Shown one piece after another: positions 1,461-56,340 of a stretch of DNA of 64,000 bases (within the stretch, counting starts at the first letter, position 1; each line of letters opens with the position of its first letter). Origin of the DNA: a virus; the IMG/VR virus record IMGVR_UViG_3300029651_000001, positions 1 to 64,000 of that record; one strand, given 5' to 3'. The notes under the pieces are model-generated. The model was not told the DNA's origin. It ran no database searches and worked only from the letters and a program-made list of their open reading frames with translations. The position numbers and the translations under genes were made by a program.

Positions 1461-1479
1461 GGCCGGTGTGCTGCCGGCC
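1461..1479 (-). terminator. Intergenic stem-loop, conserved CAGCACA-loop class
   Basis: + strand reads GGCCGG TGTGCTG CCGGCC. In transcript sense it is followed directly by TAACCCTTTGGAGA. Confidence 0.6.
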
Positions 1480-1701
1480 TCACAGTAAATGACTAGGGAT
1501 GTCCTTAAATGCCTGGTGGTCCGCAGGTACGACGCCCACGGCATCCTCCGTATCCCTTACACCGGCCCGGTAGGCTGCTTTTATCAAGCGTTCTGCTACA
1601 TCGGCACGTACTTTGTTTTGCTTAACTCCACTGATATCCGCTAGCCGAGTGTCTTCCAGATTCAGCAGGATATTTTTCAGTCGATCGCTCATGCCTTTCA
1701 T
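1480..1701 (-). CDS. Hypothetical protein (73 aa)
   Basis: ATG 1701 overlaps the upstream stop (ATGA), with GGAG just upstream. Alternative ATG at 1692. The N-terminal extension to 1782 is dropped. Confidence 0.5.
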   Translation of the reverse strand: MKGMSDRLKNILLNLEDTRLADISGVKQNKVRADVAERLIKAAYRAGVRDTEDAVGVVPADHQAFKDIPSHLL

Positions 1702-1904
1702 GTCTCCACCATTGCCTCTACAAACCTGACGAACTCCTTCTCCCTCGCCTCGTCCACCGCATCCGCGGCCAGCCTGAGGCACTTGGCCAAGCCGTCCTCC
1801 CGTCGGTGTTGAAAGCGAGTGATCACCTGGCGGTTGATCCGGACTTCGTAGTCGTGAGGGCCGGTTTCCGCCGGCCGTTCGGTCACATTGACGATCGCGA
1901 TCAT
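1698..1904 (-). CDS. Hypothetical protein (68 aa)
   Basis: Begins MIAIVNVTERPAETGPHDYEV. ATG 1904 lies 2 nt after the stop of 1907..2104. Confidence 0.55.
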   Translation of the reverse strand: MIAIVNVTERPAETGPHDYEVRINRQVITRFQHRREDGLAKCLRLAADAVDEAREKEFVRFVEAMVET

Positions 1905-1906
1905 TC

Positions 1907-2104
1907 CTAGTATGCCTCCGCCAGCTCCTTCAACTCCTTTTCGACTTTCGGCCAACAGATGCTGCAGTAGTGCCGGTAACTGTGATCCGGATCCGTACCC
2001 CAACCGGCCAACTTCATTGTGATTTCCGGGGTGTCGCATTCGTCGACTTCAAGGGTGTTCCCACAGTCGAGGCCATCACATTTGACAACAGTTTGAATGG
2101 TCAT
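1907..2104 (-). CDS. Small Cys-rich protein (65 aa)
   Basis: Cys pairs KCDGLDCGN and HYCSICW. RBS is GGAGAAACC-ATG. Confidence 0.55.
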   Translation of the reverse strand: MTIQTVVKCDGLDCGNTLEVDECDTPEITMKLAGWGTDPDHSYRHYCSICWPKVEKELKELAEAY

Positions 2105-2116
2105 GGTTTCTCCAGG

Positions 2117-2371
2117 TTAACAATCACACGAGCAACCGCCGCCAGAGCTTCCAGAGTCACAGCCCCCCGAGCTGCCGTAAACCGGCGTGTGACTGGAGGA
2201 CGCCGAGGAGCTCGACGATCTCGAGCAGGCCCTCGCCGGCTTAACTGGCGGCATCGTCGGACAGTTCCTCGCCTTGCGCACCCCCCGATCCCACGGTCTC
2301 GGCGGCTGGACTTCCTCGGAAGCAGCAATTGATCGGCTCTTCTTGAATAGATTCTTCAGCCAATTGAGCAT
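2117..2371 (-). CDS. Possible overlapping small ORF (84 aa; Cys/Gly/Ser-rich C-terminus)
   Basis: Good RBS (GAGGTG N4 ATG) and a stop 12 nt before the next start. However, it overlaps the 3' end of 2241..2609 by 131 nt and is Ser/Arg/Pro-rich like an off-frame read. Confidence 0.25.
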   Translation of the reverse strand: MLNWLKNLFKKSRSIAASEEVQPPRPWDRGVRKARNCPTMPPVKPARACSRSSSSSASSSHTPVYGSSGGCDSGSSGGGCSCDC

Positions 2372-2609
2372 GTAACACCTCGTTTAACTTCTTCAGGAAT
2401 TCTTCATACGCTGCCTTGCAGCCGATTCGCCGCTTGATGTGCGGCGGGATCTTCGGCAGGTACCCGAAGGCCACATAACCTTCGTCGGCCCAGGTCCCAA
2501 GCACAGCGGTCCCGGTGTAACCCAGCAAAAGAAGCTTCTTGCCTTTCGGCGCGGGCTCTTCAAGAGGGTCGATCCACCAGACGATGGGCGCAGTCTTGGG
2601 CTCGATCAC
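2241..2609 (-). CDS. Hypothetical protein (122 aa)
   Basis: GTG 2609 overlaps the upstream stop (GTGA), with GAGGAG 6 nt upstream. The last ~35 aa are low-complexity. Confidence 0.55.
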   Translation of the reverse strand: MIEPKTAPIVWWIDPLEEPAPKGKKLLLLGYTGTAVLGTWADEGYVAFGYLPKIPPHIKRRIGCKAAYEEFLKKLNEVLHAQLAEESIQEEPINCCFRGSPAAETVGSGGAQGEELSDDAAS

Positions 2610-3004
2610 TCGGGACTCCTCAGAGGAGCACCTTCCTCAAGCATCTTTTCCAGTACCGCCAATTCATTCCAAGCCTTATGAGCCTGATGCAGCAGTTCGG
2701 AATCCTTGTCGTAAGGCCCTTCGATGACTTCCTTGATGGTGTGGCGCTCGCTGGCGTCCCCGTAACGGTTAATGGCATCTGGCACGTCCCGCCAACCACC
2801 CCACAAGTATTTCTCGGCCCCGTGCTGAGAGACAAACGCAACGGCTTCCAAGGCTCGCGGGAAGTACTGCAGGACGCCTCGCTTAATTGGTGGCTTGCCG
2901 GCGTCCAGCTTGGCTCCCGGGGAGTGAGGGGAGCGGCCTGTAGGATCCGTCTCCTGCAGAGTTGGTAGTTTGGGCACACTGGCCCCCCGTAAGTTTTCAG
3001 GCAT
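2606..3004 (-). CDS. DUF5664-like protein (dATP/dGTP diphosphohydrolase N-terminal-like fold, tentative)
   Basis: The pattern GAKLDAGKPP...ALEAVAFVSQHGAEKY...W...RYGDASERH resembles that phage family, from memory. Start trimmed to ATG 3004 after the leader motif at 3011-3024. Confidence 0.55.
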   Translation of the reverse strand: MPENLRGASVPKLPTLQETDPTGRSPHSPGAKLDAGKPPIKRGVLQYFPRALEAVAFVSQHGAEKYLWGGWRDVPDAINRYGDASERHTIKEVIEGPYDKDSELLHQAHKAWNELAVLEKMLEEGAPLRSPE

Positions 3005-3104
3005 GACACATCTCCAAAGGGTTAACGAAGTTCGGTACTTACTGAATACGGAATGTCGTTGGTTGAGATCGCGGTTCTGCAAGTCCCGTAGGTTCTCCAA
3101 AGAG

Positions 3105-3389
3105 TTAAATCCCGGTGCTGGCGTACCAGTAGAGCCAGGAGAGGATGCCTGCTCCCCCGACTAATGCCCCCAGAAGGAAGTAAATCAGCAAGGCTACCCA
3201 ACTGAGGCTTCTGCTGTCCTCGAAAAGCTCGTCGTTCGCTTGTTCCAGCTGCTTAATAGTGTCCCTCCAGTCGCTGTACAACTCATCCAACGTCTCCGCC
3301 CCTTCGGCGATGGAGTCCGCGGCCTCCCTGAATGTTTTCTGCAATGCTTTTACTTGCACCATAGGGTCCTGCTTATCGGCGTCACCCAT
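3105..3389 (-). CDS. Membrane-anchored hypothetical protein (94 aa)
   Basis: AAGGAG RBS. C-terminal hydrophobic segment WVALLIYFLLGALVGGAGILSWLYW. Confidence 0.6.
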   Translation of the reverse strand: MGDADKQDPMVQVKALQKTFREAADSIAEGAETLDELYSDWRDTIKQLEQANDELFEDSRSLSWVALLIYFLLGALVGGAGILSWLYWYASTGI

Positions 3390-3401
3390 TCCGTACTCCT
3401 T

Positions 3402-5570: not shown

Positions 5571-5585
5571 AGGGCTCCAAAGGGT

Positions 5586-5882: not shown

Positions 5883-5884
5883 GG

Positions 5885-6955: not shown

Positions 6956-7660
6956 TTATGCAGACATACGTAGAGCTTGTTCGGTAAACCCATACTTCGC
7001 AGCCAGTTGCGCCTTATCGGTGTGTCTCAGATGGTTGGCAGGCAAGACTTCAACCAAGCTTCCCTTCAGGACTTTCACAATTCCTTGATCTTCCAAAGCA
7101 TTAAGCGCATACGTCGTCATCTCCCTGGAACACCTTGCAAGCTTGGCTAATACCGCTCTCGGCGCAGCGATTCTTCTAGTTCTGTTACCTAACTCTTCAT
7201 TGCTTTTTAATAAGTCAAGCAGCGCCAAATATACTCGGTCTTCTACCTTTCTGAATTCCCGACTGGCTATAGCCTTACTCAGGTTTAGTACTGTAGACGA
7301 TACTTGGACCAATATTGCCTCTAATACTTCAGCCCTAACATCGGCCGACATTGCTATTAGGGATTTTCTGAGAGCTCCCTTCGATATGGTTGCGACGCAT
7401 GACTCTACCTCAGCGGTCACCAGATAATCAAACGGCTGGCTCCCGAAAACCGTTTCCACTCCTACTATGCTGCCGCACCCTGCCCTGTATAGCAGAGTGC
7501 TTCTGTTGTCATCTTCCTCTTCACTAAGCACCTCAACAGAGAGCCCTCCGTGAATTACATAATACAGTCCGTCTAACCTTTTTCTATCCGTTAGTGGTTC
7601 GCCTTTTCTTACTAGACGCGATTCCCCTATTTTCAAAAATACTGTATGCAATGAATGCAT
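6956..7660 (-). CDS. Crp/Fnr-family transcriptional regulator (cNMP-binding domain plus C-terminal HTH)
   Basis: N-terminal beta-roll pattern (LVRKGEPL...LYYVIHGGLSVEV...LLYRAGCGSIVGVE...AEVESCVATI). HTH RAVLAKLARCSREMTTYALNALEDQGIV. Visibly AT-richer than its neighbours and lacks the leader motif. Confidence 0.8.
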   Translation of the reverse strand: MHSLHTVFLKIGESRLVRKGEPLTDRKRLDGLYYVIHGGLSVEVLSEEEDDNRSTLLYRAGCGSIVGVETVFGSQPFDYLVTAEVESCVATISKGALRKSLIAMSADVRAEVLEAILVQVSSTVLNLSKAIASREFRKVEDRVYLALLDLLKSNEELGNRTRRIAAPRAVLAKLARCSREMTTYALNALEDQGIVKVLKGSLVEVLPANHLRHTDKAQLAAKYGFTEQALRMSA

Positions 7661-9412: not shown

Positions 9413-9427
9413 TGTGTCTCCAAAGGG

Positions 9428-12400
9428 TTAAGCAACTTTCAAAAGTTCGAGGTACTTGTCGAAGTCGATCGAATCGAGTTCGAGGCTGACCTCCGGGTCG
9501 TTCGCAGCCAGTGCTATGGGCGAATTGCTCCCGTCGTGGTACCAATAAGTGAGGTCCTTCGTCTCCAGAACCTTCCGCACTGCCGCCACGATTTCATCCG
9601 GTGTCGGGCACCGGCCTACATCCTCCTCTTTCAGGATTTCGATTTGGTCTCCAAAGTTGGGACCCAGGGACGGCGCCGACGGCAGTGGCACACCTAGACC
9701 CTCGACCGGGATCGTCATGATCTCGTAGAGCTCGGTGATGAGAGGGACGGCGACGCTGTGATGGCACGAGACCACCACTTCGTCGTAGATCGTTGCGATC
9801 AGGGAAGCGTCGTACCGCTGCAGGATCTTTCTTACCCACAACTCCTTCAACGTGCGTTTCAGGATGTCTGCGGCCAGGCCTTGAATCTTATAGTTCACGG
9901 CTTGACGGTGCATCCGGCTGACCAGGTCGTCGTTACCGATCAACAGGTTGTTGTAGAAATGTCGCCGGCTGCCGAACAGCGTGGACACGTACCCTTTTGC
10001 CATGAGATCGCCGATCACCTCGCGCCGCCACTCCTCGACGCGCCAGTTCAACGCCTTTTTGGTTCGCAGGTACTCGTCCGCCTCGATGACCGGACACAAG
10101 AGTTGTCGTGCCAGTTTTTCCGCACCAATTCCGTAAATCGAACCAAAGTTGATGTTCTTGGCCTTGCTGCGCAGATCCTTGAACTCCTTCGAACGAGGGT
10201 GCTCCTTGTCCTCCATGGTGTCGCGGAATTCCTCATACGACAGTTTCGCAATCGCCGCCCCCACCGCCGTATGCAGCGACATGGAGTTGTCGCCATCCGG
10301 CCCGTAGACTTTCAGCAGCTCTGGATCCTGGGAAAGTCCCGTCAGCTCTCGAAGTTCCTGTGACGACCAGTCGCAAGAAACGACCAGGTCGTGACCTTTC
10401 TTTCTGTTCGGTAAGATGTTTCTCCTGAACTTGACCCCTTCGCCCTTCTTCGGCCACTGGAACGGGTTCGGATTCGACCCAGACGGCCGGCGGGTGTCCG
10501 TACCTGTGGAGTTGACGCTCGGGTGAATGTTGCCGTCTAGCGGGTGCACCCACAAAGGGTACTTGGCGTAGAACAAGCCTTCCCGAGTCAAACATTCCTT
10601 GACCGTCTTCAAGGCAAGCAGCGCCTCTCGGCGCCAATCGCCTTCCTTGGTGTCCTCGGCGATGGCCATGGCCACGGCATCCTTGTCCGTACCCGGCGCG
10701 CCCGGCAATCCCAAAGCCTTACGTGTGTCGGAGACTTTGAGATTCCGGAGGCGAATCGGCAGCGCCAGCATGCCGTAGAGGAGAGCCACGTTCTGCTTGG
10801 GGGAATTAAGGTTTAGCTCGGAACCCTCCAGCACCCAACGCTCTTCCTCCGGTAGATCTTCTCGCAAGATCTCCTCGGCGTACCAGAGCAGTTCCTGAAC
10901 CTCCAGGTCCTCCTTCTTCTTGCCGGCGGCGCGGCCCAACATCCGCAAGAACTTCTCGTCGCCAGTCTCCTGGTTGTCCAGGATGTACCCGGTGATTGCT
11001 TTCTTTGATGTGGAAGGGATTTCAGGCATACCCAGCACAGCTGCTACCTTGCTGAGGCAAGCACTCGTGAACAGCGCCTTGATAGGTTTTGGTAGGCGTT
11101 TCAGCGGCTGATATGTTGCCATCTCGTAGCAATCCGCCTTGAGCTGTACCAGCGCAGCTGCCAATTCATCCTCGGTTTTGCCGTCTTTGGCCGCCTTTGC
11201 TCTGACCTCCATTGATAGTTCGTCGAACAAGATCTGGGCACCTTTGCCGATTTGCTCAGGGCTGCGGTGCTCTTCCAAGAGCTTTCGCAGCTTGTCCATC
11301 GCCTCGTTCAGCGTCCGCCGATCATCCTCTTGCTGCCGAGCCATTTCTTCGAGGTCGACCGAGATGCCGTCAAGGTATGACTGCGACAACGGATATACCG
11401 CGACGAACTCGTTCTCCCGAACAAAGTCCCAGGTTCCTTCGCATTCCAAAATCAGCCTGGAAAGCTCATATAGATGAGCGGTAACAAAAGGATCGTCCGC
11501 GCCGTAGTCGAAGACATGAGTCGCCGGGTAGTCGCACATCCGTTTACCCTTCTCGACGACGTCCTCGTAGTGTTTCTGATCGTAATCGAACCAGCTCTTG
11601 GTCAGATCCTTGAGACCGTGCCAGTCGTTCTCGTCGACATGACTGGCCATTATCTTGGTGTCGTGCAGGTTCGGGATGTCGAATCCGAGCTCGTTGAGGA
11701 CAACCGTACGCTCGAAGTAGCAGTTGTGCGCTACGATCGGCTTTTCCTTTGCAGCTCTCAGCAGGCCGACCAACTCCTCCTTCGGCAGGTTGGGTGTGTC
11801 CCTATGGTCAAACGAAGCGTAGATCGTGTATTCCAGGTTGTTCCCGAACGTGAAGCCGGCGCCGGCAACCCGATGTGACAGCATGTCGACGTATTCGCTT
11901 TGCGCGGCCTTGGCTTTATTGAAGGCTTCGTGCTGGACGTAATCCGAGGACTCGATGTCGAAGGCGACATAGGCGGACTCGTCCATCGCCTTGAGGATGT
12001 CCTCCTTCATGTCGGAATAATTACTGGCGTCGACCAGAATCTTGACCGGAGTCAGGTGTTGTAGCTTGCTGATTAAGTGAGAGCATCCGGTGTCGAGCAG
12101 GAGTTTGCGCAACTTCTGCTCGTCCGGCAGCCTTTTATGCCACTTGATTCGCTGGAACTTGGTCCCGTAGAACGCGTCCACCAAGTTGGGGTTGATGTTC
12201 GCAAGGTGCCAGCTATTGATCCACTCGTTCCGCTGCTCCCAAAGTTTCTCGAGCAGCTTGTGTTCTCCAGGCTCGTGTTTCAAGGCGTCACGAATCAATG
12301 GGAAGTCGCCGGATGCGATATCCTCCTTGATCTTTCGGAGACCGTCTTCCCCGTAGGCTTCCAACAGTTCCGGCCACTTAGCCGGGCCGAAACCTTTTAC

Positions 12401-13012: not shown

Positions 13013-13038
13013 AAGGCCTCCAAAGGTCTAAAACAGAA

Positions 13039-13063
13039 CGGCCGGCGTGTGCTGCGCCGGCCG
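13039..13063 (-). terminator. Intergenic stem-loop, conserved CAGCACA-loop class
   Basis: + strand reads CGGCCGGCG TGTGCTG CGCCGGCCG (9-bp stem). It lies between the stop at 13075 and the polA leader. Confidence 0.65.
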
Positions 13064-13074
13064 TCCGACTTATC

Positions 13075-13797: not shown

Positions 13798-13863
13798 ATG
13801 CGTCTCCAAAGGTTATGTCAGTGTCAGTGTCAGCGTCAATTTCACAGCTTTGCCCGAGCTGAC

Positions 13864-13885
13864 GTCGGGCGCGGTGCTGCGCGAC
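13864..13885 (-). terminator. Intergenic stem-loop, CAGCAC-loop variant
   Basis: + strand reads GTCG(GG)CGC GGTGCT GCGCGAC. The stem is bulged and the loop variant in transcript sense is AGCACC. Confidence 0.4.
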
Positions 13886-13933
13886 CGAAACTCGGTTAAC
13901 GGAAAGGCAGGCTAGTGTTAGGTTTCAGGTTTG

Positions 13934-15505
13934 TCAATCTAAGCTCCCCCTCAACCCTTCTTCCCCCAGCAGATCGGCCAACAAGGTTCGTTTGTCCCGG
14001 ACGACGCTGTTGGCTTGGGAGTCTCGACGGGTCAGATCGTTCCTCAACTTCACGGCGATCGTCTTCAGTGCGACCAGGATGTAAATGTTCACCGATTCAG
14101 CTTGTTGTCCTGTCCGGTGTAGCCGATCGATCGACTGCTGGAACACGCCGGGGATCGGGCAGACCTCGGCGTAGATCACGTGGGAACAAACGTGCTGAAA
14201 ACCGTCCACCCCAACGCCGCCCGAGCGAGGCTGAGCTACGATCAACCGGCACGTCGGGTCCTTGATAAACTTCTGCTTCTCATTCTCTCGTTCTTGTCCG
14301 GAGACTCCACCATACAACACAGCAGGGTTGAGCCTCTTGAAGTGGTCCAGTAGCTTCTCTACCGAATGTCTGTACCATGCGTAGATCAGGATCTTGTGCG
14401 CCCCTATCGACTTCACCAGCTCGTCCAAGGTGTCCAGCAGGTGGTTCTCCGCCGGCGGCCGGTCGGTATAGCGTTCTGGGGTCATCAATATCTGCTGCAT
14501 GATTTGGTAACAGGCTGAGGCGGACGTTGCATCGATCACTGACCCATCCTCGAACTCCAGAATCCGCTCGTCGACCAGCTTCTTGTACAGCCGCATATGG
14601 CTTTCGGAAAGCTCGATCGGGACCTCGGAGATGATACGGGGCGGGAGATCCGATACGTCCTTTTTGAGGACTCTGCGGCCGACGCTGTAAAGTCCTTGAT
14701 ACAAGTAGTCCTCGTTCATGTACCCGACAGTCTTCATAAATCCGCCCACGTCTGCCTGGATGCAGTGAACACGGTCGAAAGCCTTCTTGCTCCCATACCT
14801 CAAGGGGTTGAGAATGGCAATCAGACCGTAGGCGTCTTCCAGGGTATTCTCTATAGGCGTTCCGGTCATCAAAATGACGCCGTTAGATTCTTCACCATAT
14901 TTGCCGGCGAAGCACTTCACAGCATTGTGAATCTGGGTCCCCGCGGTTTTGACCGCGGTCGCCTCGTCGACGATCACGCATGTGTACCCCCTTGCAAGAA
15001 GAGTCCGCCAGGTGAACGTCTTAGCATCGAATCCTGGTTCAGAGATACCTTTGTCGCCCACAAACATCCGGTAGGACATTACCAAGACATCCGGCCAACC
15101 CTGGGCCTCCCACTGCTGGATCAAGGCGTCCCGGTCCGTTGGTTTACCGGCGAACCTCTCAACGGTGATGTGCTGCTCGATGTCTGGGAACATCATACGG
15201 AATGACGCCAGGAACTGAGGTGTTAGGAGCGGCGGCATGACGACCACCACCTTGTTTCCATACCCGATCAACCACGTTGCATACGCTTGCGCCGGGAATG
15301 TCTTGCCAGTTCCAGGCTCCGAGAAATCCCCCGACCGGACATGCATCCCATAATGGTTCAGCGTCTCTACCTGGTGGTAAAACGGCTCTTCTGCTAACCC
15401 CAGTTTCCACATCCATTTTTGCGGTACTGGGCAGTTCGCCGCGGCGAGAAATTCACCCAGCGTTCTGGGCTTGGGCTGTTGTTTCGTGGCTAGTGCTGTA
15501 GCCAT
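13934..15505 (-). CDS. SNF2/Rad54-family DNA helicase
   Basis: Motifs GTGKTF, VIVDEATAVK, MTGTPIEN and, in the C-terminal helicase domain, QSIDRLHRTGQ. Confidence 0.85.
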   Translation of the reverse strand: MATALATKQQPKPRTLGEFLAAANCPVPQKWMWKLGLAEEPFYHQVETLNHYGMHVRSGDFSEPGTGKTFPAQAYATWLIGYGNKVVVVMPPLLTPQFLASFRMMFPDIEQHITVERFAGKPTDRDALIQQWEAQGWPDVLVMSYRMFVGDKGISEPGFDAKTFTWRTLLARGYTCVIVDEATAVKTAGTQIHNAVKCFAGKYGEESNGVILMTGTPIENTLEDAYGLIAILNPLRYGSKKAFDRVHCIQADVGGFMKTVGYMNEDYLYQGLYSVGRRVLKKDVSDLPPRIISEVPIELSESHMRLYKKLVDERILEFEDGSVIDATSASACYQIMQQILMTPERYTDRPPAENHLLDTLDELVKSIGAHKILIYAWYRHSVEKLLDHFKRLNPAVLYGGVSGQERENEKQKFIKDPTCRLIVAQPRSGGVGVDGFQHVCSHVIYAEVCPIPGVFQQSIDRLHRTGQQAESVNIYILVALKTIAVKLRNDLTRRDSQANSVVRDKRTLLADLLGEEGLRGSLD

Positions 15506-18883: not shown

Positions 18884-18899
18884 GCGGGAACCAAAGTGC

Positions 18900-18924
18900 G
18901 GCCGGCTGTGTGCTGCAGCCGGCC
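18900..18924 (-). terminator. Intergenic stem-loop, conserved CAGCACA-loop class (second of a tandem pair)
   Basis: + strand reads GGCCGGCTG TGTGCTG CAGCCGGCC (9-bp stem). Confidence 0.65.
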
Positions 18925-18938
18925 ATCACAGAGTAGCG

Positions 18939-19239: not shown

Positions 19240-19938
19240 TCACCTCCAAGGTCGTGTAAACGCCATCTCAAACCGCTTCCGCTTACTCGCCGGCCCATGC
19301 ACGTCGATCACGACGTCATAGTCCCGGCCATTGCAGCGCAAGCACCGAATACATTGGACGCCCAGCTTTTCAAACGGGCAAACAATCTCGCCCCGCTGCC
19401 GCGGACTGCCCTCTAATTTTGTCCGGTAAGTCCGCCACCCGAGACGCCTAGCCTCTGCCGCTTGATCCAGCGTCTCAACTGATGCCTGGCAAAACGCCTT
19501 CAACCGCTGATCCGTCGCCGGATGGTTCCACTGGTGAGTATAACCTAACCACCCCAAGGATTTGGACAAGAGCTGCTCCCAGATTTCAAACGGTGCCGCC
19601 GCTGGATCTCCGTAGGCTCCAAGCCGTACCGCCCGTCCGGCACCGATCAGGGTCAGTTTTTCCTCTTTGTAATTGCCAGCTCGGTATTCCCGGTAGATTC
19701 GGAGCGGGTCCTGCTCCACCCGGACGTAGCACGATCCCTTGCGATGCATACAGTCGCCGCAGATCGAGTAGTCCTCGCCGGATTTGACGGCATCCCTGGG
19801 ATCGATGTCCTCGCGCAGGATATACACTTGTGCGGTTGGACCGGTCTTCCGATTGTTCGAGGGTCGATCGATCCCGGTCGCAAGGCAAACGATCTCCTTA
19901 CCATCCAGGGCCGACGGCCCCCGGTAGAGTAAATGCAT
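19240..19938 (-). CDS. Conserved hypothetical protein (232 aa, Cys-rich)
   Basis: ATG 19938 follows the leader motif at 19944. Notable strings are ICGDCMHRKGSCYV, GAYGDPAAAP, GYTHQW and CIRCLRCNG. Confidence 0.6.
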   Translation of the reverse strand: MHLLYRGPSALDGKEIVCLATGIDRPSNNRKTGPTAQVYILREDIDPRDAVKSGEDYSICGDCMHRKGSCYVRVEQDPLRIYREYRAGNYKEEKLTLIGAGRAVRLGAYGDPAAAPFEIWEQLLSKSLGWLGYTHQWNHPATDQRLKAFCQASVETLDQAAEARRLGWRTYRTKLEGSPRQRGEIVCPFEKLGVQCIRCLRCNGRDYDVVIDVHGPASKRKRFEMAFTRPWR

Positions 19939-19962
19939 GGTAGTCTCCAAAGGGTAAAAACA

Positions 19963-19993
19963 AAAAGCCCAAGGTGTGCTGCCTTGGGCTTTT
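19963..19993 (-). terminator. Rho-independent terminator, CAGCACA-loop class
   Basis: + strand reads AAAAGCCCAAGG TGTGCTG CCTTGGGCTTTT. In transcript sense the stem is followed by UUUUUG. Confidence 0.75.
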
Positions 19994-20112
19994 CGGGTGT
20001 CGGGTATTTGTCGGCTATTGCCGATTTATTCCCCTAGCTCAGGTGTCTAATACATAGTTAGATAACTCTATCTGCTTCGTGTACATCACACCTTCTCAGT
20101 TTGATTAGTCTG

Positions 20113-21214: not shown

Positions 21215-21232
21215 AGCAAGGTGCTGCTCGCT
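21215..21232 (-). terminator. Imperfect stem-loop with a GTGCTG loop (CAGCAC class, degenerate)
   Basis: + strand reads AGCAAG GTGCTG CTCGCT, with one mismatch in the stem. Confidence 0.3.
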
Positions 21233-21233
21233 G

Positions 21234-21800
21234 TTACCGGTAGGCTCGGGTCGTGCTGCTAATCAGGCTGTACGCTGTAGCGACGCCTGCTTTATCCGCC
21301 GCGAAGTTCGCCGTGTTGCACGCCTTGATGTTGAGCATTGCCCCTGTCTGGAACGCATCCTGATTCGCCGCCAGGAAGATGAACTCCCAGGAGTATTTCT
21401 CTTCCTGGTGTTTGATCATTTCGGCGACCCGTTCCCGGGTGTACTCCTTGCTGGAGTTCTCGGCGCCGTCCGTCAGGATGGCGACGATCACTTTGCTCGG
21501 CTTTACGTCCGACCTAGCAAGCCGAGTTCCTATGGCATCGATCGTCCGGCCGATGGCGTCATAGAGTGCTGTGCTGCCTCGAGGCACGTAGGCATCGGCA
21601 GTTAGCTCCGGAACACCTTGCAGGTTAACGGCGTCATGAACCACTTGATACTCGTGGTCGAACAGAACAAGTGTCAGCTTGGCGTCTCCCGGAACTTCTT
21701 TCTGCTCTTTGAGGAAGGTGTTGAATCCGCCGATAGCATCGTCACGGATACTGGACATGGAACCGGAACGGTCAATGATACTAACTAGTTCTACGTACAT
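21234..21800 (-). CDS. von Willebrand factor A (vWA) domain protein
   Basis: MIDAS-like DRSGSM near the N-terminus and a later TDGAENSS. ATG 21800 with an AGGAGA RBS. Confidence 0.7.
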   Translation of the reverse strand: MYVELVSIIDRSGSMSSIRDDAIGGFNTFLKEQKEVPGDAKLTLVLFDHEYQVVHDAVNLQGVPELTADAYVPRGSTALYDAIGRTIDAIGTRLARSDVKPSKVIVAILTDGAENSSKEYTRERVAEMIKHQEEKYSWEFIFLAANQDAFQTGAMLNIKACNTANFAADKAGVATAYSLISSTTRAYR

Positions 21801-21808
21801 GATTTCTC

Positions 21809-22021
21809 CTAAACAACAGGTAACGCATAGCCGGCCAACTGCTCCAGCCAATCGAGCTGGGCGTCCGACACAAAGGCATCCAGACCGTAGCGGGCGAATG
21901 CTGCTTGCATCTGGCTGGTGAACTCAATGGCCTGGTCCGTGATGGCATTGGCCGCGGCGTCATCGATAAACCGTTTCACACGGGCCTCGGCCTCGTGCGT
22001 GCAAAGGTCTCTGAATCTCAT
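21809..22021 (-). CDS. Hypothetical protein (70 aa)
   Basis: ATG 22021 overlaps the upstream stop (ATGA), with GGAGG 5 nt upstream. The track start at 22033 is a TTG. Confidence 0.55.
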   Translation of the reverse strand: MRFRDLCTHEAEARVKRFIDDAAANAITDQAIEFTSQMQAAFARYGLDAFVSDAQLDWLEQLAGYALPVV

Positions 22022-22230
22022 CCAAGCCTCCAACCATGCCTACCCCACTTTGTCACGATGCCTGTAGAAACCAGGCCTATCGGGCCAAAGAGAATGGCTA
22101 CCAGAGCTAGAAATCGGTCCATAATTAACGTCTCCTCAGCTATCGTCGGCCACTCATCTTGGAAATACGCAAATAGCCACCCAGCTGAAACTAGCCCTAA
22201 CCCAACCCAAATAGTCAAAATCAGCAACAT
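22018..22230 (-). CDS. Small membrane protein (70 aa, two hydrophobic segments)
   Basis: ATG 22230 follows a leader-motif variant at 22236. Hydrophobic segments LLILTIWVGLGLVSAGWLFAY and FLALVAILFGPIGLV. Confidence 0.6.
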   Translation of the reverse strand: MLLILTIWVGLGLVSAGWLFAYFQDEWPTIAEETLIMDRFLALVAILFGPIGLVSTGIVTKWGRHGWRLG

Positions 22231-22246
22231 ATAAGTCTCCAAAAAC

Positions 22247-22273
22247 AAAGGCGCAAGGAGTGCTTGCGCCTTT
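22247..22273 (-). terminator. Rho-independent terminator (loop variant CACUC)
   Basis: + strand reads AAAGGCGCAAG GAGTG CTTGCGCCTTT. In transcript sense it is followed by GUUUUUGGAGA. Confidence 0.7.
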
Positions 22274-22291
22274 CCGGTTACGCCTTTCCGG

Positions 22292-22558
22292 TTACGTGTT
22301 TCGTCTCGTTATAGCTTGCTTCAGTGCAGTTTCCGAGTCGATGACCAGCAGGATGGCTTGATCCAGAGTGTACCCACGTTTCACGTACTCTTGGACCATC
22401 TGGTCCTTGACATCAACTAATCCTAGGCCGATGCTCTTAACCAGCCCTTTTATCAAGGGGCCGTAGCTCTCCAACTGTTCCACGACCGTCTGCGCCACCG
22501 GGCGGAGTTCTTCCGCCATTTGCATTACTTCCAGGATGTCTTTGGTGTTTATGCTCAC
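22292..22558 (-). CDS. Hypothetical protein (88 aa)
   Basis: GTG 22558 with GGGAGAG 5 nt upstream. It lies 2 nt after the stop of the HU-like gene. Confidence 0.55.
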   Translation of the reverse strand: MSINTKDILEVMQMAEELRPVAQTVVEQLESYGPLIKGLVKSIGLGLVDVKDQMVQEYVKRGYTLDQAILLVIDSETALKQAITRRNT

Positions 22559-22560
22559 TG

Positions 22561-22842
22561 TTACTCTCCCGCCCAGCTCGATAGGTTGGCCGTCGGCTTG
22601 ATGACGACGACCTTACGGGCCGGGACGTCGATCTGGGCGCCGGTCTGCGGGTTGCGAGCTTTCCGGGCCGGCCGCTCCTTTACACGTAAGGTGAAGAGGT
22701 TGCGCAGGTAGATGCTGTCGCCGGCATCAACCGCCTGCTCGATGGTTCTCTCCAGGGCATCCACGACGTCGTGGACAGCCGACCTGGTTAGCCCTGTGTA
22801 GGTGTTCTGGTGGACTTTTTCGATCAGTTCTTTCTTGTTCAT
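22561..22842 (-). CDS. HU/IHF-family DNA-binding protein
   Basis: MNKKELIEKV...TGLTRSAV..VDAL...I and the beta-arm RNPQTGAQIDVPARKVVVIKP are typical of the HU fold. Confidence 0.85.
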   Translation of the reverse strand: MNKKELIEKVHQNTYTGLTRSAVHDVVDALERTIEQAVDAGDSIYLRNLFTLRVKERPARKARNPQTGAQIDVPARKVVVIKPTANLSSWAGE

Positions 22843-24151: not shown

Positions 24152-24177
24152 GAGGGCGCCGATGCTGCGGCGCCTTC
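24152..24177 (-). terminator. Intergenic stem-loop, CAGCAU-loop variant
   Basis: + strand reads GGAGGGCGCCG ATGCTG CGGCGCCTTC (10-bp stem including one G-U pair). Confidence 0.6.
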
Positions 24178-26482: not shown

Positions 26483-26503
26483 GGCTCCGTATGCTGCGGA
26501 GCC
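26483..26503 (-). terminator. Intergenic stem-loop, CAGCAUA-loop variant
   Basis: + strand reads GGCTCCG TATGCTG CGGAGCC. Confidence 0.6.
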
Positions 26504-37907: not shown

Positions 37908-37929
37908 GGCGCCGCGTGCTGGCGGCGCC
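37908..37929 (-). terminator. Intergenic stem-loop, CAGCAC-loop class
   Basis: + strand reads GGCGCCGC GTGCTG GCGGCGCC (8-bp stem). Confidence 0.65.
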
Positions 37930-39049: not shown

Positions 39050-39098
39050 GCAATTTCTCCAAAGGGTTAGACTGCTTGTGCTGGGCGCCGCTAGCCGA

Positions 39099-39398: not shown

Positions 39399-39418
39399 AT
39401 TGTCTCCAAAGGGTTGAA

Positions 39419-39437
39419 GGCGCCTGTGCTGGGCGCC
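39419..39437 (-). terminator. Intergenic stem-loop, conserved CAGCACA-loop class
   Basis: + strand reads GGCGCC TGTGCTG GGCGCC. Confidence 0.6.
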
Positions 39438-45261: not shown

Positions 45262-45498
45262 CCGGATAAGCTCCGGCGGGCTCTTGTTGCTGGACTTGTA
45301 CGGCTTACAGCTCCCGTTTGGTTGTACCTTGATTTCCCCCTAATGCTTGCGGGCTGCAGGGTTTGTGCATCTTGGGTGCGCGAATTCCCATGTCCGGACG
45401 CAGTCCCAAGTAGCAATCAAAGCATTACCATCCAACCAATAATGGCTAGGTCGCAGCTCCCCGGATCGTGTCTGTTACCGGATAAGCTCCGGCGGGCT
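45262..45498. repeat. 21-bp direct repeat CCGGATAAGCTCCGGCGGGCT (45262-45282 and 45478-45498)
   Basis: Exact 21-mer copies 216 bp apart, downstream of the tag frame. Each contains the 5-bp hairpin CCGGA/TCCGG. Similarity extends about 8 nt further on one side. Confidence 0.85.
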
Positions 45499-45563
45499 GT
45501 TGTCGCCAACGACTGCGATTCGGTTGCCCGGCTTCTGTTCTCAAGCGCCGGGCAGGCTCGGCT

Positions 45564-45605
45564 TTAGGCGGCTGCCTTCAGCGGGGCATACGTATCATCG
45601 TTTGC
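45564..45605 (-). other. tmRNA tag reading frame: ANDDTYAPLKAAA followed by a stop
   Basis: GCA AAC GAT GAT ACG TAT GCC CCG CTG AAG GCA GCC GCC TAA. The GCA resume codon, AND start and AAA end are typical of proteolysis tags. Confidence 0.75.
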
Positions 45606-45882
45606 CTTTGTGGTTTTGCGCGGTTAACGCCCGTCGCCTTTCGTGCTGCCATCTCTGCTTTGCTGCCCCGTCGAAACCTGGCTGGCCCATCAGAAGAAGG
45701 CTGTTAGAGCGTGCAGTAGGAGTCGAACCTTCTTTTGGTGGACCAGGCCGGAATTGAACCGGCGTCCGAGACAACTCCACTTCGATGGAGTTACAGCAAT
45801 TCGGCGCCCAATCTATTCGGCAGACTCCCACTGGACTAGGAGCGCATACTGCCGGCATCCCTACAGGGCGGCCAGGTCTGCC

Positions 45883-49154: not shown

Positions 49155-49173
49155 ACAGCGTCAGCGACGCTGT
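49155..49173. promoter_or_regulatory. ACAGCGTC palindrome (copy 1)
   Basis: ACAGCGTC AGC GACGCTGT. Confidence 0.55.
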
Positions 49174-49258: not shown

Positions 49259-49277
49259 ACAGCGTCACTGACGCTGT
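49259..49277. promoter_or_regulatory. ACAGCGTCA palindrome (copy 2)
   Basis: ACAGCGTCA C TGACGCTGT. It overlaps the stop codon of 49265..49474. Confidence 0.55.
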
Positions 49278-49508: not shown

Positions 49509-49528
49509 GACGCTGTCAAGACAGCGTC
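49509..49528. promoter_or_regulatory. ACAGCGTC palindrome (copy 3, arms in the inverted order)
   Basis: GACGCTGTC AA GACAGCGTC. Confidence 0.55.
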
Positions 49529-49828: not shown

Positions 49829-49859
49829 ACAGCGTCAGCATTCATACGGCTGACGCTGT
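49829..49859. promoter_or_regulatory. ACAGCGTCAGC long hairpin (copy 4)
   Basis: ACAGCGTCAGC attcatacg GCTGACGCTGT (11-bp arms). Confidence 0.55.
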
Positions 49860-50365: not shown

Positions 50366-50384
50366 ACAGCGTCAATGACGCTGT
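50366..50384. promoter_or_regulatory. ACAGCGTCA palindrome (copy 5)
   Basis: ACAGCGTCA A TGACGCTGT. Confidence 0.55.
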
Positions 50385-50775: not shown

Positions 50776-50815
50776 CTAAGGACATGTCCCTAGCGGGTTA
50801 GGGACATGTCCTTAA
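50776..50815. promoter_or_regulatory. Tandem pair of GGGAC/GGAC-AT-GTCC palindromes
   Basis: CTAAGGACATGTCCCTAG (50776-50793), then cggg, then TTAGGGACATGTCCTTAA (50798-50815). The two sites are reverse complements of each other. Confidence 0.6.
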
Positions 50816-50836
50816 CAGCGCCGTCCTTGGCGCTGT
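50815..50836. promoter_or_regulatory. ACAGCGCC hairpin with a GTCCTT loop (copy 6, variant)
   Basis: ACAGCGCC GTCCTT GGCGCTGT, just downstream of the stop of 50842..51546. Confidence 0.5.
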
Positions 50837-51565: not shown

Positions 51566-51622
51566 TTAAGTACATGTCCCTAAGCGGGACTCGTTAAGTA
51601 CACGTCCTTAAGGACGCTGTCC
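51566..51622 (-). promoter_or_regulatory. Operator/promoter cluster at the divergent switch
   Basis: + strand has TTAAGTACATGTCCCTAAG (51566-51584), TTAAGTACACGTCCTTAA (51594-51611), and an overlapping AAGGACGCTGTCC (51610-51622). Confidence 0.6.
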
Positions 51623-51628
51623 TCAGTA

Positions 51629-52214: not shown

Positions 52215-52327
52215 GTCACCTCACAAATATCCCCACTCCTTGTGAGAACTCCCTCTATCTTCTAAATCTCCACTTCCACTAACCTATTGCCGTCCCTTCC
52301 TTCCTGGGGACGATGGGTGCTTCCCCT

Positions 52328-52357
52328 GGCCCGCCGAACCTCGGCGGGCCTCTTTTT
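52328..52357 (+). terminator. Strong rho-independent terminator
   Basis: GGCCCGCCGA ACC TCGGCGGGCC followed by TCTTTTT. It lies inside the N-terminal part of ORF-track entry 52313..52909, which I therefore shortened. Confidence 0.85.
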
Positions 52358-52429
52358 AAGTATCCGACGACACGCAGCACCGTGTTTCAGGGAAACCAGG
52401 ACGTAGCCCATGGACGGGCAGGCTCACGG

Positions 52430-52909: not shown

Positions 52910-52914
52910 CACCT

Positions 52915-53151: not shown

Positions 53152-53375
53152 ACACATTGACGTCTGTCGGGATGCTTGAAAGACCCGCTTCCCAGTTCGT
53201 TCTCACCGGTTTCTCCAGACCCATCATGGCCGGCAAGCAGCTGGCGTACCACCAAGGTCAGGCTTATGCCCTGCCGAACGACGAGTACTGGATGTTCAAA
53301 AACCTGTTCCCGGACGTCGTTTTCAACCTGACCCACAACAAACTGTCGGCAGCAATAGCCAGGGAGATGCGATGA
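53148..53375 (+). CDS. Hypothetical protein (75 aa)
   Basis: ATGA coupling at both ends. Confidence 0.55.
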   Translation: MNTLTSVGMLERPASQFVLTGFSRPIMAGKQLAYHQGQAYALPNDEYWMFKNLFPDVVFNLTHNKLSAAIAREMR

Positions 53376-53917: not shown

Positions 53918-54081
53918 AATCTCGACTGAAAGTTAGCAGGGAAACCCAATTTTGGTGCTGGTTCGCCCTTTCTTGCCTGCTCGGGCTGCTCTCCAAGTCG
54001 GTCGGCGGACCCTTGAACGACTCCTTGGCCTGGAGTTTCTCTTTTTCTGCGGCAGTTATCGCGTTTTGGAGGTGCCGGTGA
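53914..54081 (+). CDS. Small membrane protein (55 aa, below the track cutoff), holin or spanin candidate
   Basis: Hand translation gives MKSRLKVSRETQFWCWFALSCLLGLLSKSVGGPLNDSLAWSFSFSAAVIAFWRCR. ATGA coupling to the SLT gene and TGATG coupling downstream. Confidence 0.5.
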   Translation: MKSRLKVSRETQFWCWFALSCLLGLLSKSVGGPLNDSLAWSFSFSAAVIAFWRCR

Positions 54082-54347
54082 TGTCAAAGGCGTGGTGGGA
54101 AGACTTTAGGGAATGGCTGAAGTGGTGTGTCGCCGGCGAGGAGCTGCGGAAGTTGGAACAGTACCGGACAACTGTCTGCACGTACCGGATGTGGTTGGCT
54201 GAGTTCAAGGACATTTCTACGGTTTTGGACAATTTGAATGCTGAGGTCGAAGGTGGTGGATACCTAAACGCAAGCTCACCGCCTGGAGAGCAAGGTCCGT
54301 GGGAAATAGCTAGCCTCAGGGAAGTTGTGAGGTCAATCAGATGTTGA
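54081..54347 (+). CDS. Hypothetical protein (88 aa)
   Basis: ATG 54081 (MSKAWWEDF) with a GGAGGTG RBS. The track start at 53952 was dropped. Confidence 0.55.
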   Translation: MSKAWWEDFREWLKWCVAGEELRKLEQYRTTVCTYRMWLAEFKDISTVLDNLNAEVEGGGYLNASSPPGEQGPWEIASLREVVRSIRC

Positions 54348-54514
54348 AGTGGCTCAGGGAGGCTTTTTGTTGGCACGAGCTGCGCTTTGTAAACCGACTG
54401 CGGCTGGTCAGGAAAAACAATTGGCTGGAGAGCGTCCCGGTTACCGAGCTGTGCTGTTGGAAGTGCGGCGCGGATGAGCAGAGGCTGCTCTCGTTATGGG
54501 GATTTTGGGCCTGA
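54341..54514 (+). CDS. Small Cys-containing protein (57 aa, below the track cutoff)
   Basis: Hand translation gives MLKWLREAFCWHELRFVNRLRLVRKNNWLESVPVTELCCWKCGADEQRLLSLWGFWA. Coupled at both ends. Confidence 0.4.
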   Translation: MLKWLREAFCWHELRFVNRLRLVRKNNWLESVPVTELCCWKCGADEQRLLSLWGFWA

Positions 54515-56301
54515 TGCACCCTCTTGTCGTTGAGTACTTTGATCGTATCCACGACGCTGTCCTTGAAACGTCTAGCCTGAGTCGCGTTTCGGACTGGATG
54601 ACGAAGCGGACCTTCCTGAACGGGAAACCTTTTAGCTTCAAGGATCACGAGTACCAGATCGAGATCGTCAATACCCAGCACCCGAACTCTTGTTGTATCA
54701 AGCCGTCCCAGGTAGGTATGTCGGAGGCGGAATACCGGATGACTCTTGGGTTGCTGGACATGACGCCCGATAGCGTTGCCCTGCTCCTCATGCCTACCGT
54801 CCACGAGGCTCAGCGTCAGGTCAAGAGCCGTATTGATCCGATCATCCAGGGCTCGAAACACTTGAATTCCAGATTGAATCCTGGAAGTGACTCGGCCAGC
54901 TTCAAAATGATCGGAACTAGTCAGCTCCATGTTGGAGGGACTTACGGCAAGGCGATCATTTCTATCCCTTGCTCTATGGTAATCGTCGATGAACGGGATT
55001 TCTGCAACCCAGAAGCGTTGATCACCGCGGAGTCCCGCTTGTCGCATGCGCCGCATGTCGACGAAAAGACCGGTCTCCGTGGATTTCGGCGGGAATTTTC
55101 GACGCCGACGGCGTCAGGCATAGGGGTATCGGAATCGTTCGAGCAGTCGGATCAGAAGCGCCGGCTAGTCAAATGCAAGCGCTGTGGTCATTGGTTTTGG
55201 CCTAATCTGTTGGTCCACGGGGTGATCCCAGGGTTCGACCGGAGTCTGGAGGACATCACCTACCTGGATGTCCGGGCGTTGGAAGCCAAAGGGCAGATCG
55301 CTAATGCCAAAATCCTTTGCGAAAAGTGCCACAACCCGATTACCAAAGAGAATTTGGGGCCGGAGTACCGGGAGTGGGTGGCGGCCCACCCAGAACGGTA
55401 TCTGGTGGAGGGGTTCGCGGTAAGTCCGTTTGATTTGCCGGAGTACCACACGGCCCCGACCTTGTTGCGGAAGTTGATCAAGTTCAAGAACGAGTTCGGC
55501 CACTGGAAGAACTTCACGCTGGGGCTGTCCCACGACGACGCCAGTAACTCTATCCTCGACGAGGTCGTCGAGGAAAACACTGTAATCAAGCCGATCCCTC
55601 CGGACGTGGCGGAGGCGATGAAGCTGCACGGCTGCATTGCCGGGCTCGACGTTGGTAAAACGTCGTGGCTGACGATCGGCAAGGTGGTCGGCCGGAAGGT
55701 CCACATCCTGTGGGTCGAACAGATCCGGCTTCGAGGCGAGAACGGCGACGGCCTGAAGGAGCATGTCATCAAGCGGCTCAAGCAGTATGGCGTCATCCGC
55801 TTCGTATCTGACGCCCTACCTTACACCGACACGATTCTTAGTATTCGAGACGCGATGCCGGACCAGTTGGTGTACCCCTGCATGTACACCTTGACCGACA
55901 AGAAACTGCCGGCATACGTCCCCAAGGAAACGGAGGGAGAGCGTCAGGTGGACGCCAACCGAACCAAGACGTTGAACCGGGTGGCCAAGCGGGTGAATGG
56001 TGGTGAGGTCCTGTTTCCGATGATGGACGAGATGGAAACCGTTCGGGACCATTTTCAAGGGATGAAGCGGGTGGATCAGACCGACGACCACGGCGAGGTC
56101 GAGCAAAACTGGGTCAAAGGCAGCCGGGACGACCACTACTTTCACGCAGCCAATTACTTGCTGATCGCGGCGGACATGATGGAGGAGTACTACGGGGACT
56201 GGGCGCCGGTGCCTTCGATCACGCAGATCGAGGTCGGTAAAAAAGCAATAGTTGACAAACCGCCCTTGTTCTTGAGGCCGGCCTCCACTAAGATACTGTA
56301 A
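54514..56301 (+). CDS. terL: Terminase large subunit
   Basis: Size and position immediately upstream of the portal. The N-terminal ATPase-like region has KPSQVGMSE and acidic motifs (VIVDERD). ATG 54514 is coupled (TGATG) to the upstream ORF. Confidence 0.7.
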   Translation: MHPLVVEYFDRIHDAVLETSSLSRVSDWMTKRTFLNGKPFSFKDHEYQIEIVNTQHPNSCCIKPSQVGMSEAEYRMTLGLLDMTPDSVALLLMPTVHEAQRQVKSRIDPIIQGSKHLNSRLNPGSDSASFKMIGTSQLHVGGTYGKAIISIPCSMVIVDERDFCNPEALITAESRLSHAPHVDEKTGLRGFRREFSTPTASGIGVSESFEQSDQKRRLVKCKRCGHWFWPNLLVHGVIPGFDRSLEDITYLDVRALEAKGQIANAKILCEKCHNPITKENLGPEYREWVAAHPERYLVEGFAVSPFDLPEYHTAPTLLRKLIKFKNEFGHWKNFTLGLSHDDASNSILDEVVEENTVIKPIPPDVAEAMKLHGCIAGLDVGKTSWLTIGKVVGRKVHILWVEQIRLRGENGDGLKEHVIKRLKQYGVIRFVSDALPYTDTILSIRDAMPDQLVYPCMYTLTDKKLPAYVPKETEGERQVDANRTKTLNRVAKRVNGGEVLFPMMDEMETVRDHFQGMKRVDQTDDHGEVEQNWVKGSRDDHYFHAANYLLIAADMMEEYYGDWAPVPSITQIEVGKKAIVDKPPLFLRPASTKIL

Positions 56302-56320
56302 TGTTGCTGGTACGCACGGA

Positions 56321-56340
56321 CGAGGGTCAGCACACCCTCG
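56321..56340 (+). terminator. Intergenic stem-loop, conserved CAGCACA-loop class (plus-strand copy)
   Basis: CGAGGG TCAGCACA CCCTCG on the + strand. Here the loop reads CAGCACA on the strand that is transcribed, as it does for the minus-strand copies. Confidence 0.6.

Follow-up and report, generated by a model that had tools for sequence, protein, structure and literature searches.

The 64,000-nucleotide (nt) stretch analysed here (the window; positions 1 to 64,000 of IMG/VR virus record IMGVR_UViG_3300029651_000001) is phage-like and carries a family of hairpins with variable stems and a conserved loop, CAGCAY(A) by consensus in the sense of transcription. These hairpins far exceed chance expectation, lie on the sense strand of the genes around them and stand at gene junctions. 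In close relatives their stems covary while the loop is retained, and the loop core recurs in most of the relatives sampled from the clade. A sequence-only reading of this DNA had proposed unrelated stems around a constant CAGCACA loop. The coordinates that it listed do read as it wrote them, and nearly the same loop is indeed present on all copies, although it is not always CAGCACA.

Perfect hairpins of this kind, counted as at least 5 Watson-Crick pairs around a CAGCA[C/U] loop, number 12 in the window against a mean of 0.21 and a maximum of 2 in 300 dinucleotide shuffles; this count is far beyond chance. The bare heptamer TGTGCTG is also in excess (16 seen, 7.6 expected; 0 of 100 shuffles reached 16), and CAGCAC is the commonest loop hexamer, with 10 copies against 4 for the next unrelated one. 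Among hairpins with 6-7 nt loops, C[AG]GCA loops account for 9 of 196 in the window versus 9 of 3413 in a control set of 1.55 Mb of unrelated loci. A covariance model (R1) trained on ten copies with 7-nt loops, a check that the sequence-only reading had suggested, recovers held-out copies with 6-nt loops at 14.5-21.5 bits (37908, 21.5 bits; 56319, 17.9; 24154, 17.3; 13866, 14.5). Chance, or a compositional artefact of GC-rich palindromes, has the GC-rich stems in its favour and nothing further; already refuted by the shuffle and control counts, and contradicted by the covariation described below, it retains a negligible probability. In an Rfam search of the window a transfer-messenger RNA (tmRNA) alone passes the gathering threshold, and around 18.8-20.1 kb nothing relevant appears at E<=5. 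A literature search for conserved-loop phage hairpins or CAGCACA found nothing relevant.

The leftward gene block, from ~51.5 kb down to position 1, contains about 14 copies; another 2 are in the rightward block, which starts at ~52 kb. Each has the sense orientation of the local genes: the leftward copies are all minus-sense, those at 52369-52386 and 56321-56340 are plus-sense, and none is antisense to its block, in agreement with the strand lock described earlier. The copy once thought to be single in the rightward block is plus-sense as stated, but it has a companion at 52369-52386; this copy, the one at 15487-15504 and a decayed one at ~39070-39090 were missing from the earlier list. The full set is as follows, read in the sense of transcription.

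1460..1480, minus: AGGCCGG-CAGCACA-CCGGCCT; overlapping the stop codon upstream of it, with the GGAG of the nrdB leader 8 nt further on; R1 30.9 bits, a self-hit (copy in the training alignment)
13036..13066, minus: GGACGGCCGGCG-CAGCACA-CGCCGGCCGTTC; U-rich tail; upstream of polA
13852..13887, minus: weak copy CGCG-CAGCAC-CGCG at 13866-13883, beside a stronger hairpin at 13852-13870, GCCCGA-CGUCAGC-UCGGGC
15487..15504, minus: TGGCTA-CAGCAC-TAGCCA; 6 nt past the stop codon of the primase-like gene, overlapping the SNF2 start codon
18867..18883, minus: GCAAG-CAGCACA-CTTGC; second member of a tandem pair
18899..18925, minus: TGGCCGGCTG-CAGCACA-CAGCCGGCCG; begins right at the upstream stop codon; R1 32.2 bits, a self-hit (copy in the training alignment)
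19961..19995, minus: 14-bp stem, loop CAGCACA, A-tract and U-tract; a terminator-like copy
21215..21232, minus: AGCGAG-CAGCAC-CTTGCT, one G.U pair; upstream of the ATP-dependent DNA ligase gene
24152..24177, minus: GGCGCCG-CAGCAU-CGGCGCC; upstream of the DUF932 gene; R1 17.3 bits, held out
26483..26503, minus: GGCTCCG-CAGCAUA-CGGAGCC; spacer and leader in common with copy 24152; U-rich tail
37908..37929, minus: GGCGCCGC-CAGCAC-GCGGCGCC, without a U-tract, followed directly by AAGGACATGTACTTAA and the leader; R1 21.5 bits, held out
39070..39090, minus, approximate: decayed copy with 5' arm GGCGCC and loop CAGCACA intact, 3' arm lost
39419..39437, minus: GGCGCC-CAGCACA-GGCGCC
52369..52386, plus: GACACG-CAGCAC-CGTGTT; rightward leader region, 18 nt after the canonical terminator at 52328-52350
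56318..56343, plus: CGAGGGT-CAGCAC-ACCCTCG; 19 nt past the terL stop codon
58573..58590, plus: variant ACATTG-UCAGCU-CAATGT; upstream of the S49 protease gene
287..304, minus: variant TGGTGG-UCAGCU-CCACCA; downstream of nrdB

The stems do vary, but calling them unrelated goes too far: part of them are of a GGCCGG or GGCGCC type, and some copies are paralogous cassettes, as we conclude for 24155 and 26483 because they share both loop variant and spacer. The copy previously placed at 13864-13885 exists, but is weak, with a 4-bp CGCG stem next to the better hairpin at 13852-13870. Both UCAGCU hairpins, which had been set apart as a secondary class, are also present. Their chance expectation is 0.17 pairs of identical hexaloops, which is statistically marginal; because copy 58573 keeps its loop through a compensatory change in a relative, they are probably a variant of the same family, sharing the CAGC core. 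A further hairpin inside the portal gene, CTCCG-CAGUACA-CGGAG at 57172-57188 on the plus strand, is in sense orientation with one loop mismatch and scores 17.7 bits with R1; it is probably a chance occurrence.

Loop retention in orthologous and distant hairpins

Covariation counted on paralogous copies is inflated by copy selection, and orthologue comparisons were used instead. The close relatives are L146 and L060, whose PolA is 74% and whose ~233-amino-acid (aa) protein is 83% identical to that of the window, and L001, whose TerL is 89% identical. In six orthologous pairs (13036, 15487, 18867, 19961, 56321 and 58573) the loop core is kept while the stem carries compensatory changes, which is the covariation that the sequence-only reading had asked about. 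At 13036 the L146/L060 orthologue has A-U in place of G-C plus an inserted pair, and at 56321 an A-U pair has become G-C in L001, with the same loop in both cases. The L146 orthologue of 15487, TGGCGA-CAGCAC-TCGCCA, carries two changes in the SNF2 gene, both synonymous and at third positions, and that of 18867 has a different stem with two sense G.U pairs (CAGTAGGG-CAGCAC-CCTTGCTG). The variant hairpin at 58573 reads ACATTA-UCAGCU-TAATGT in L001, where G-C has changed to A-U around the same loop. A loop shift accompanies the stem changes at 19961, where L146 has a compensated stem insertion, a U.G pair and CGGCAC for CAGCACA. The 13852 region is also kept in L146, and C-to-U changes there give sense-strand G.U pairs in the 13852-13870 hairpin.

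The same comparisons show what appears to be a hairpin module that moves or is exchanged as a unit. We draw this from four observations: the window becomes homologous to L146 at the nucleotide level precisely from the 5' edge of hairpin 19961 onwards; the 1460 hairpin plus leader is identical to L001 at 38 of 40 nt, whereas the NrdB proteins share just 46% identity and a different gene lies upstream; copy 39070 is a half-copy; and copies 24152 and 26483 are paralogues.

Hairpins of this type, without exception in sense orientation, also occupy junctions of the same kinds in more distant lineages, which are listed here with PolA identity to the window, GC content and loops.

L062: PolA 47%, GC 58%; CGGCAU twice (in tandem, before polA), CGGCAC and CGGCACU
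L150: PolA 45%, GC 50%; CAGCAC and CCAGCACA
L144: PolA 44%, GC 53%; CCAGCAC
L151: PolA 43%, GC 59%; CUUAGCAC(A) and CUAGCAA
L145: PolA 42%, GC 52%; CAGCAA four times
L152: PolA 41%, GC 43%; CAGCACA, CAGCAC and CGCACA

The clade-wide loop core is Y-R-G-C-A-H with an invariant GCA; around it, no resemblance between lineages is left in either stems or leaders, and the intergenic sequence cannot otherwise be aligned. The motif is missing from L061, L143 and L063. A motif hairpin precedes polA in the window, L146, L062, L145, L151 and L152; at this junction L143 and L063 have a canonical U-tract terminator with another loop. Because the unpaired loop outlasts its own stem and flanks, we regard these comparisons as strong evidence of selection on loop identity. 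The earlier argument from a fixed loop, drifting stems and strand lock to a selected recognition element is strengthened by the six orthologous pairs and by a loop core that persists at 41-47% PolA identity.

Junction geometry, folded molecule and possible reader

Most hairpins start 0-19 nt past the upstream stop codon, several of them touching it, and end 8-22 nt before the GGAG of the leader ACCCTTTGGAG as a rule. The placement between a stop codon and a leader or ribosome-binding site (RBS), as first described, holds in most cases; it fails at 15487, which overlaps the SNF2 start codon. The leader, ACCCTTTGGAG(A), stands 5-8 nt before the start codon of a gene subset and occurs in 34 minus-sense copies in the window, about a third of which carry a hairpin. 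Examples of the leader are:

1443..1458, minus: leader at 1448-1458
9418-9428, minus: leader
19945-19955, minus: leader
39404-39414, minus: leader

Hairpins stand in front of nrdB, polA and the genes for the SNF2 helicase, the ligase and a DUF932 protein, among others, and in front of the operon with the primase-like gene; one copy follows terL. No copies lie in the 40-51 kb region, and they are nearly absent from the structural block. The leader also has features of its own: CCAAAGGGT with at most one mismatch is seen 49 times against 15.6 expected, and relatives have their own versions (GGAGACACGCAAATG in L151, AAAYCTGGAG in L152). Tandem repeats occur in 5' leaders, namely CTGACA three times before the 244-aa gene (~13813-13836, minus) and ATTGAG twice at 1436-1447 (minus), between the Shine-Dalgarno sequence and the nrdB start.

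With stems of 5-14 bp just past stop codons the hairpins resemble intrinsic terminators, but most lack the U-tract. As the sequence-only reading remarked, only some copies have one: 4 of the 12 window copies pass a loose terminator scan, and at least 5 T in the next 10 nt follow 6 of the 25 hairpins across all lineages. U-rich tails are found at copies 13036, 19961 and 26483. The genome also has canonical U-tract terminators, whose loops are different (22247, 22879, 52328 and 61699). Transcription must read through most copies, because the next gene follows too closely for a promoter in between, and a sigma-70 scan gave no promoter at the hairpins.

We tentatively prefer, at a little under an even chance, the explanation that these are RNA junction hairpins whose loop is read by a conserved trans-acting factor, tuning read-through, 3'-end stability and/or translation of the next cistron. 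They would form at cistron junctions of long polycistronic transcripts, mostly those of replication and nucleotide-metabolism genes, just past the upstream stop codon and just before the next RBS (overlapping it in one case). Each could act as a leaky terminator or attenuator and as a barrier guarding the 3' end of the upstream message, and those at an RBS edge might be operators for translation of the next gene. The stem would need only to pair, and the loop, Y-R-G-C-A-H(-A) or here CAGCAC(A), would be the recognition determinant for a factor that sets the level of transcription, mRNA survival or translation beyond each junction, with ~15 junctions responding together.

In this scheme we infer that RNA rather than single-stranded DNA (ssDNA) folds, that a factor binds, and in which direction it acts. 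RNA is favoured over DNA as the folded molecule because the hairpins stand between stop codon and RBS, take the place that terminators have in relatives, and are concentrated in replication-gene operons instead of being spread evenly. Stem wobbles favour the sense strand (9 G.U versus 3 A.C mismatches, plus two G.U in the L146 copy of 13852), an excess that would fit sense RNA and sense-strand ssDNA equally. The GC content of motif lineages, 43-59%, probably reflects different hosts; because of this range, the likeliest reader is either a conserved protein of the phages or host machinery that is universally conserved. A more specific version is less likely than not: the YRGCAH loop could be the operator of a clade-wide, sequence-specific RNA-binding regulator that gates ~15 replication and nucleotide-metabolism junctions together. 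This regulator would be encoded by the phage, or would be a universal host machine that a 7-nt loop resembling an anticodon arm captures by presenting GCA.

Several results weigh against a loop-reading factor acting on RNA. Energies predicted for the sense and antisense folds do not tell the two strands apart, the antisense often being more stable, and transcription polarity and plausible replication polarity flip at the same place in the window. At the primase/SNF2 junction a strong hairpin just past the primase-like stop codon, inside the 5' coding end of SNF2, is conserved in position across lineages with unrelated loops (L062 7408-7436, CAAGA; L145 7464-7481, GUAC; L061 5734-5755, UGUC), and structure thus matters more than loop there. 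Some copies are paralogous or horizontally shared cassettes, and loop identity within one genome may partly be shared descent. The sequence-only reading's step from a selected element to an RNA read by a specific factor also has no candidate protein behind it: among ~107 predicted proteins, Pfam, PHROGs and NCBIfam give no RNA-binding, RNA-processing or RNase, or RNA polymerase domain, and phyletic profiling of polA neighbourhoods gave no credible partner.

Searches of PDB sequences with the 947-aa and 244-aa proteins were empty. The proteins confined to motif lineages in the phyletic profiling are dUTPase and the ~233-aa Cys-rich protein. The latter is encoded at 19240-19938 (minus) with motif hairpins on its flanks; it belongs to phrog_2554, weakly matches DUF7227 and has 7 cysteines invariant across 49 homologues. 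Its AlphaFold model has a pLDDT of 96.6 and no structural neighbour in the PDB (best Foldseek E-value 0.18), and as a prediction is uninformative on the loop reader. As identities of the loop, a MazF ACA site, CsrA GGA, an ANTAR dual hexaloop, a tRNA T-loop, a sigma-54 promoter and a CRP site were all rejected on sequence grounds.

Could the hairpins be purely structural, that is, terminators or 3' stabilisers without a dedicated reader, whose YRGCAH loop simply folds favourably? One such fold would be a G-C-A triloop with a sheared G.A pair and R2-Y6 closing, a counterpart in this clade of the C(UUCG)G loop of T4. The invariant GCA centre would fit, as would the combinations at loop positions 2 and 6 (A-U, G-C, G.U and A.C), which are pairs or wobble-isosteric; several copies are terminator-like, and relatives place canonical terminators at the same junction. 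However, A2/C6, which is seen most often, does not pair stably at neutral pH, and L145 has A2/A6. ViennaRNA gives CAGCACA no stability bonus, to our knowledge it is not a known extra-stable loop, which also counts against this explanation, and the non-motif terminators listed above work alongside with other loops in the same genome. We therefore consider a structural role without a reader unlikely.

A signal at the DNA level seems to us less probable again. Single-strand initiation (ssi) or G4-type priming signals are ssDNA hairpins on the lagging-strand template that direct primase, and some phage primases, such as that of SP6, recognise the trinucleotide 5'-GCA-3'. By analogy, a hairpin extruded on the lagging-strand template would offer its GCA to the primase-like protein, or to another ssDNA enzyme such as a nickase. 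The 947-aa primase-like protein is conserved in all lineages, and sense-strand G.T wobbles would be equally favoured in ssDNA. Moreover, the orientation switch of the hairpins coincides with the divergent region near 51.6 kb, where palindromic repeats abound and the slope of the cumulative GC skew changes; this region could be a replication origin, and if forks leave it, the CAGCA strand would be the lagging-strand template, an orientation that fits a priming signal but is not diagnostic of one. Yet trinucleotide sites are plentiful even without hairpins, the copies are tied tightly to stop-codon/RBS geometry at a position that in relatives is shared with canonical terminators, and their absence from 40-51 kb and near-absence from the structural block sit badly with lagging-strand priming, which is needed there too. 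Slightly less probable still is that the hairpin and leader are recombination linkers which, like PeSL, promote modular exchange, conservation then being spread plus gene conversion. The homology edge at 19961, the nrdB module shared with L001 in front of diverged genes, the decayed half-copy and the paralogous cassettes all agree with this, but it leaves unexplained both the compensated stem divergence around a fixed unpaired loop and the retention of the loop across lineages with entirely different leaders and stems. Exchange of this kind is compatible with the RNA-junction explanation and does not exclude it.

If the loop is indeed read by a factor, the motif would represent a new RNA motif and an RNA-binding regulator in a widespread uncultured phage clade. 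As a bait it is only 20-30 nt long, and the natural loop variants CAGCAC, CGGCAY and CAGCAA are built-in specificity controls; it would also be a compact, portable junction element for tuning polycistronic expression. Its link to mosaic breakpoints bears on how regulatory cassettes drive modular exchange in phages. Should the loop reflect only a structural preference, the motif would be much less interesting but still a useful annotation rule for the clade.

The phage segment, its relatives and other elements

The segment is without a close relative among cultured phages: it has no match in a megablast search (12 kb query) against 50,697 phage records, its TerL is at most 34% identical to any record of the phage collection, and BLAST of a hairpin plus leader gave chance-level matches only. 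The leftward block contains early and replication genes, encoding PolA with a 5'-3' exonuclease domain, an SNF2 helicase, SbcC/SbcD-like proteins, NrdB, an ATP-dependent ligase, dUTPase, a DEDDh exonuclease, a CRP-like regulator, HU and the 947-aa primase-like protein. The rightward block encodes TerL, the portal protein, an S49 protease and capsid proteins. No RNA polymerase gene was found in the window, where the largest open reading frames are those of PolA and the primase-like protein. A permuted tmRNA of the beta-proteobacterial type is encoded at 45498-45853 (minus; Rfam RF01850 119 bits, RF04321 124 bits), with the tag ANDDTYAPLKAAA as predicted by ARAGORN; the tmRNA type hints at a betaproteobacterial host.

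The relatives form an uncultured, widespread clade of phages of roughly 75-85 kb that encode PolA, the primase-like protein, SNF2 helicase and SbcCD. A pattern scan of IMG/VR for CAGCACA-N(5-30)-CCCTTTGGAG returned 36 loci, with only one contig a true relative, and a scan of IMG/VR with PolA as query gave no match. In a metagenome scan, cellular Pol I overwhelmed the matches to a PolA alignment, and only four distant relatives were gained. In L001, 4462-7443 corresponds to 404-2613 of the window and places the nrdB cassette and homologues of the genes at 1705-2613 only ~0.2-2 kb from terL; either this genome is arranged very differently, or its assembly is mosaic or permuted. L145 encodes an integrase within 21218-22670, where a fragment that looks to the eye like the 3' half of a tRNA lies between direct repeats of TTGACTACGGGC; ARAGORN called no tRNA at this locus. 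By these features L145 looks like an integrated prophage, and some members of the clade may thus be temperate. A minus-strand CAGCAC hairpin of L145 (22847-22864) was rejected as a test of orientation; it lies beyond the prophage integrase/att region, probably in host DNA.

Two other sets of repeats were seen in the window. An imperfect palindrome, TTAAGGAC-N2-GTACTTAA (AAGGACATGTCCTT type), occurs ~10 times, with several copies fused directly to the leader (start positions 51609, 50813, 50596, 46369, 45214, 43202, 37907, 33699, 24738, 20394 and 5075). Its role may be that of an operator or phage-specific promoter, on which the phage's CRP-like regulator (gene at 6956-7660) possibly acts. In the early region, beside the divergent junction, is a cluster of ACAGCGTC-N(3-9)-GACGCTGT palindromes (49155-49173, 49259-49277, 49509-49528, 49829-49859, 50366-50384 and 50815-50836), which are candidate operators or origin iterons.

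Comparison with known systems

Like intrinsic terminators, the hairpins are GC-rich and just past a stop codon, a few have U-rich tails, and relatives have canonical terminators at the same junction. Unlike them, about three-quarters of the hairpins lack a U-tract, there is usually no promoter room downstream, and the loop sequence is conserved, which intrinsic terminators do not require. The sequence-only reading went further in stating that ordinary terminators do not conserve their loop, which is overstated in view of the stable C(UUCG)G loops of T4. According to Tuerk et al. 1988, T4 reportedly has many intercistronic C(UUCG)G hairpins with a common loop in one phage, and in this respect they are close to those described here. 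UUCG is, however, a thermodynamically exceptional tetraloop, whereas YRGCAH is a loop of 6-7 nt with no known stability bonus.

Hairpins read by proteins include lambda boxB (bound by N), the MS2 and PP7 coat operators, the T4 gp43 and RegA operators, the iron-responsive element (IRE; CAGUGN) and the Smaug recognition element (SRE; CNGGN). They too combine a free stem with loop bases that are read, and their placement next to an RBS or at a 3' end controls many messages at once; none has a CAGCAY(A) loop. boxB occurs two to three times per genome together with boxA, the coat and gp43 operators are single sites, and the IRE and SRE are eukaryotic. A lambda-type nut site has a 5-bp stem, a GNRA-like pentaloop and an upstream boxA and follows early promoters, but here there are ~15 sites with loops of 6-7 nt, and of 26 boxA-like matches in the window (20.7 expected) none adjoins a hairpin. 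N4-type hairpin promoters, with a 5-7 bp stem and a 3-nt loop read by a giant virion RNA polymerase, differ in loop length and in the polymerase gene, which was not found in the window.

PeSL (promoter-early stem-loop) of T4-type phages consists of a sigma-70 early promoter and a stem-loop of conserved sequence (PMC2839356, PMC4122927). Like it, the present element is a short conserved stem-loop module repeated at gene boundaries, and it may likewise mark the exchange of otherwise unrelated sequence; among the few genomes compared, two cases of such a location are clear (19961 versus L146, 1460 versus L001). The differences are that no promoter is evident in most copies here, that the stems vary while the loop is conserved, and that the phage clade is another one. 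In cluster K mycobacteriophages, the start-associated sequence (SAS) is a 13-bp asymmetric, RBS-containing repeat that lies in one orientation at translation starts of non-structural genes, with an inverted repeat just upstream in about a third to half of the cases; in the extended form, ESAS, the 17-bp inverted-repeat arms are conserved and the spacer is variable (PMC3203893). The RBS-containing leader ACCCTTTGGAG before a subset of non-structural genes is analogous but not homologous to SAS, with unrelated sequence and host clade, and the hairpins show the opposite pattern to ESAS, with variable arms, a conserved loop and no sequence similarity. A YRGCAH regulon as proposed would be a phage post-transcriptional logic comparable to RegA or to the IRE/IRP system. 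The CAGCA-loop hairpin belongs to none of the boxB, ESAS, PeSL or Rfam families: the motif is new, and its general kind is known.

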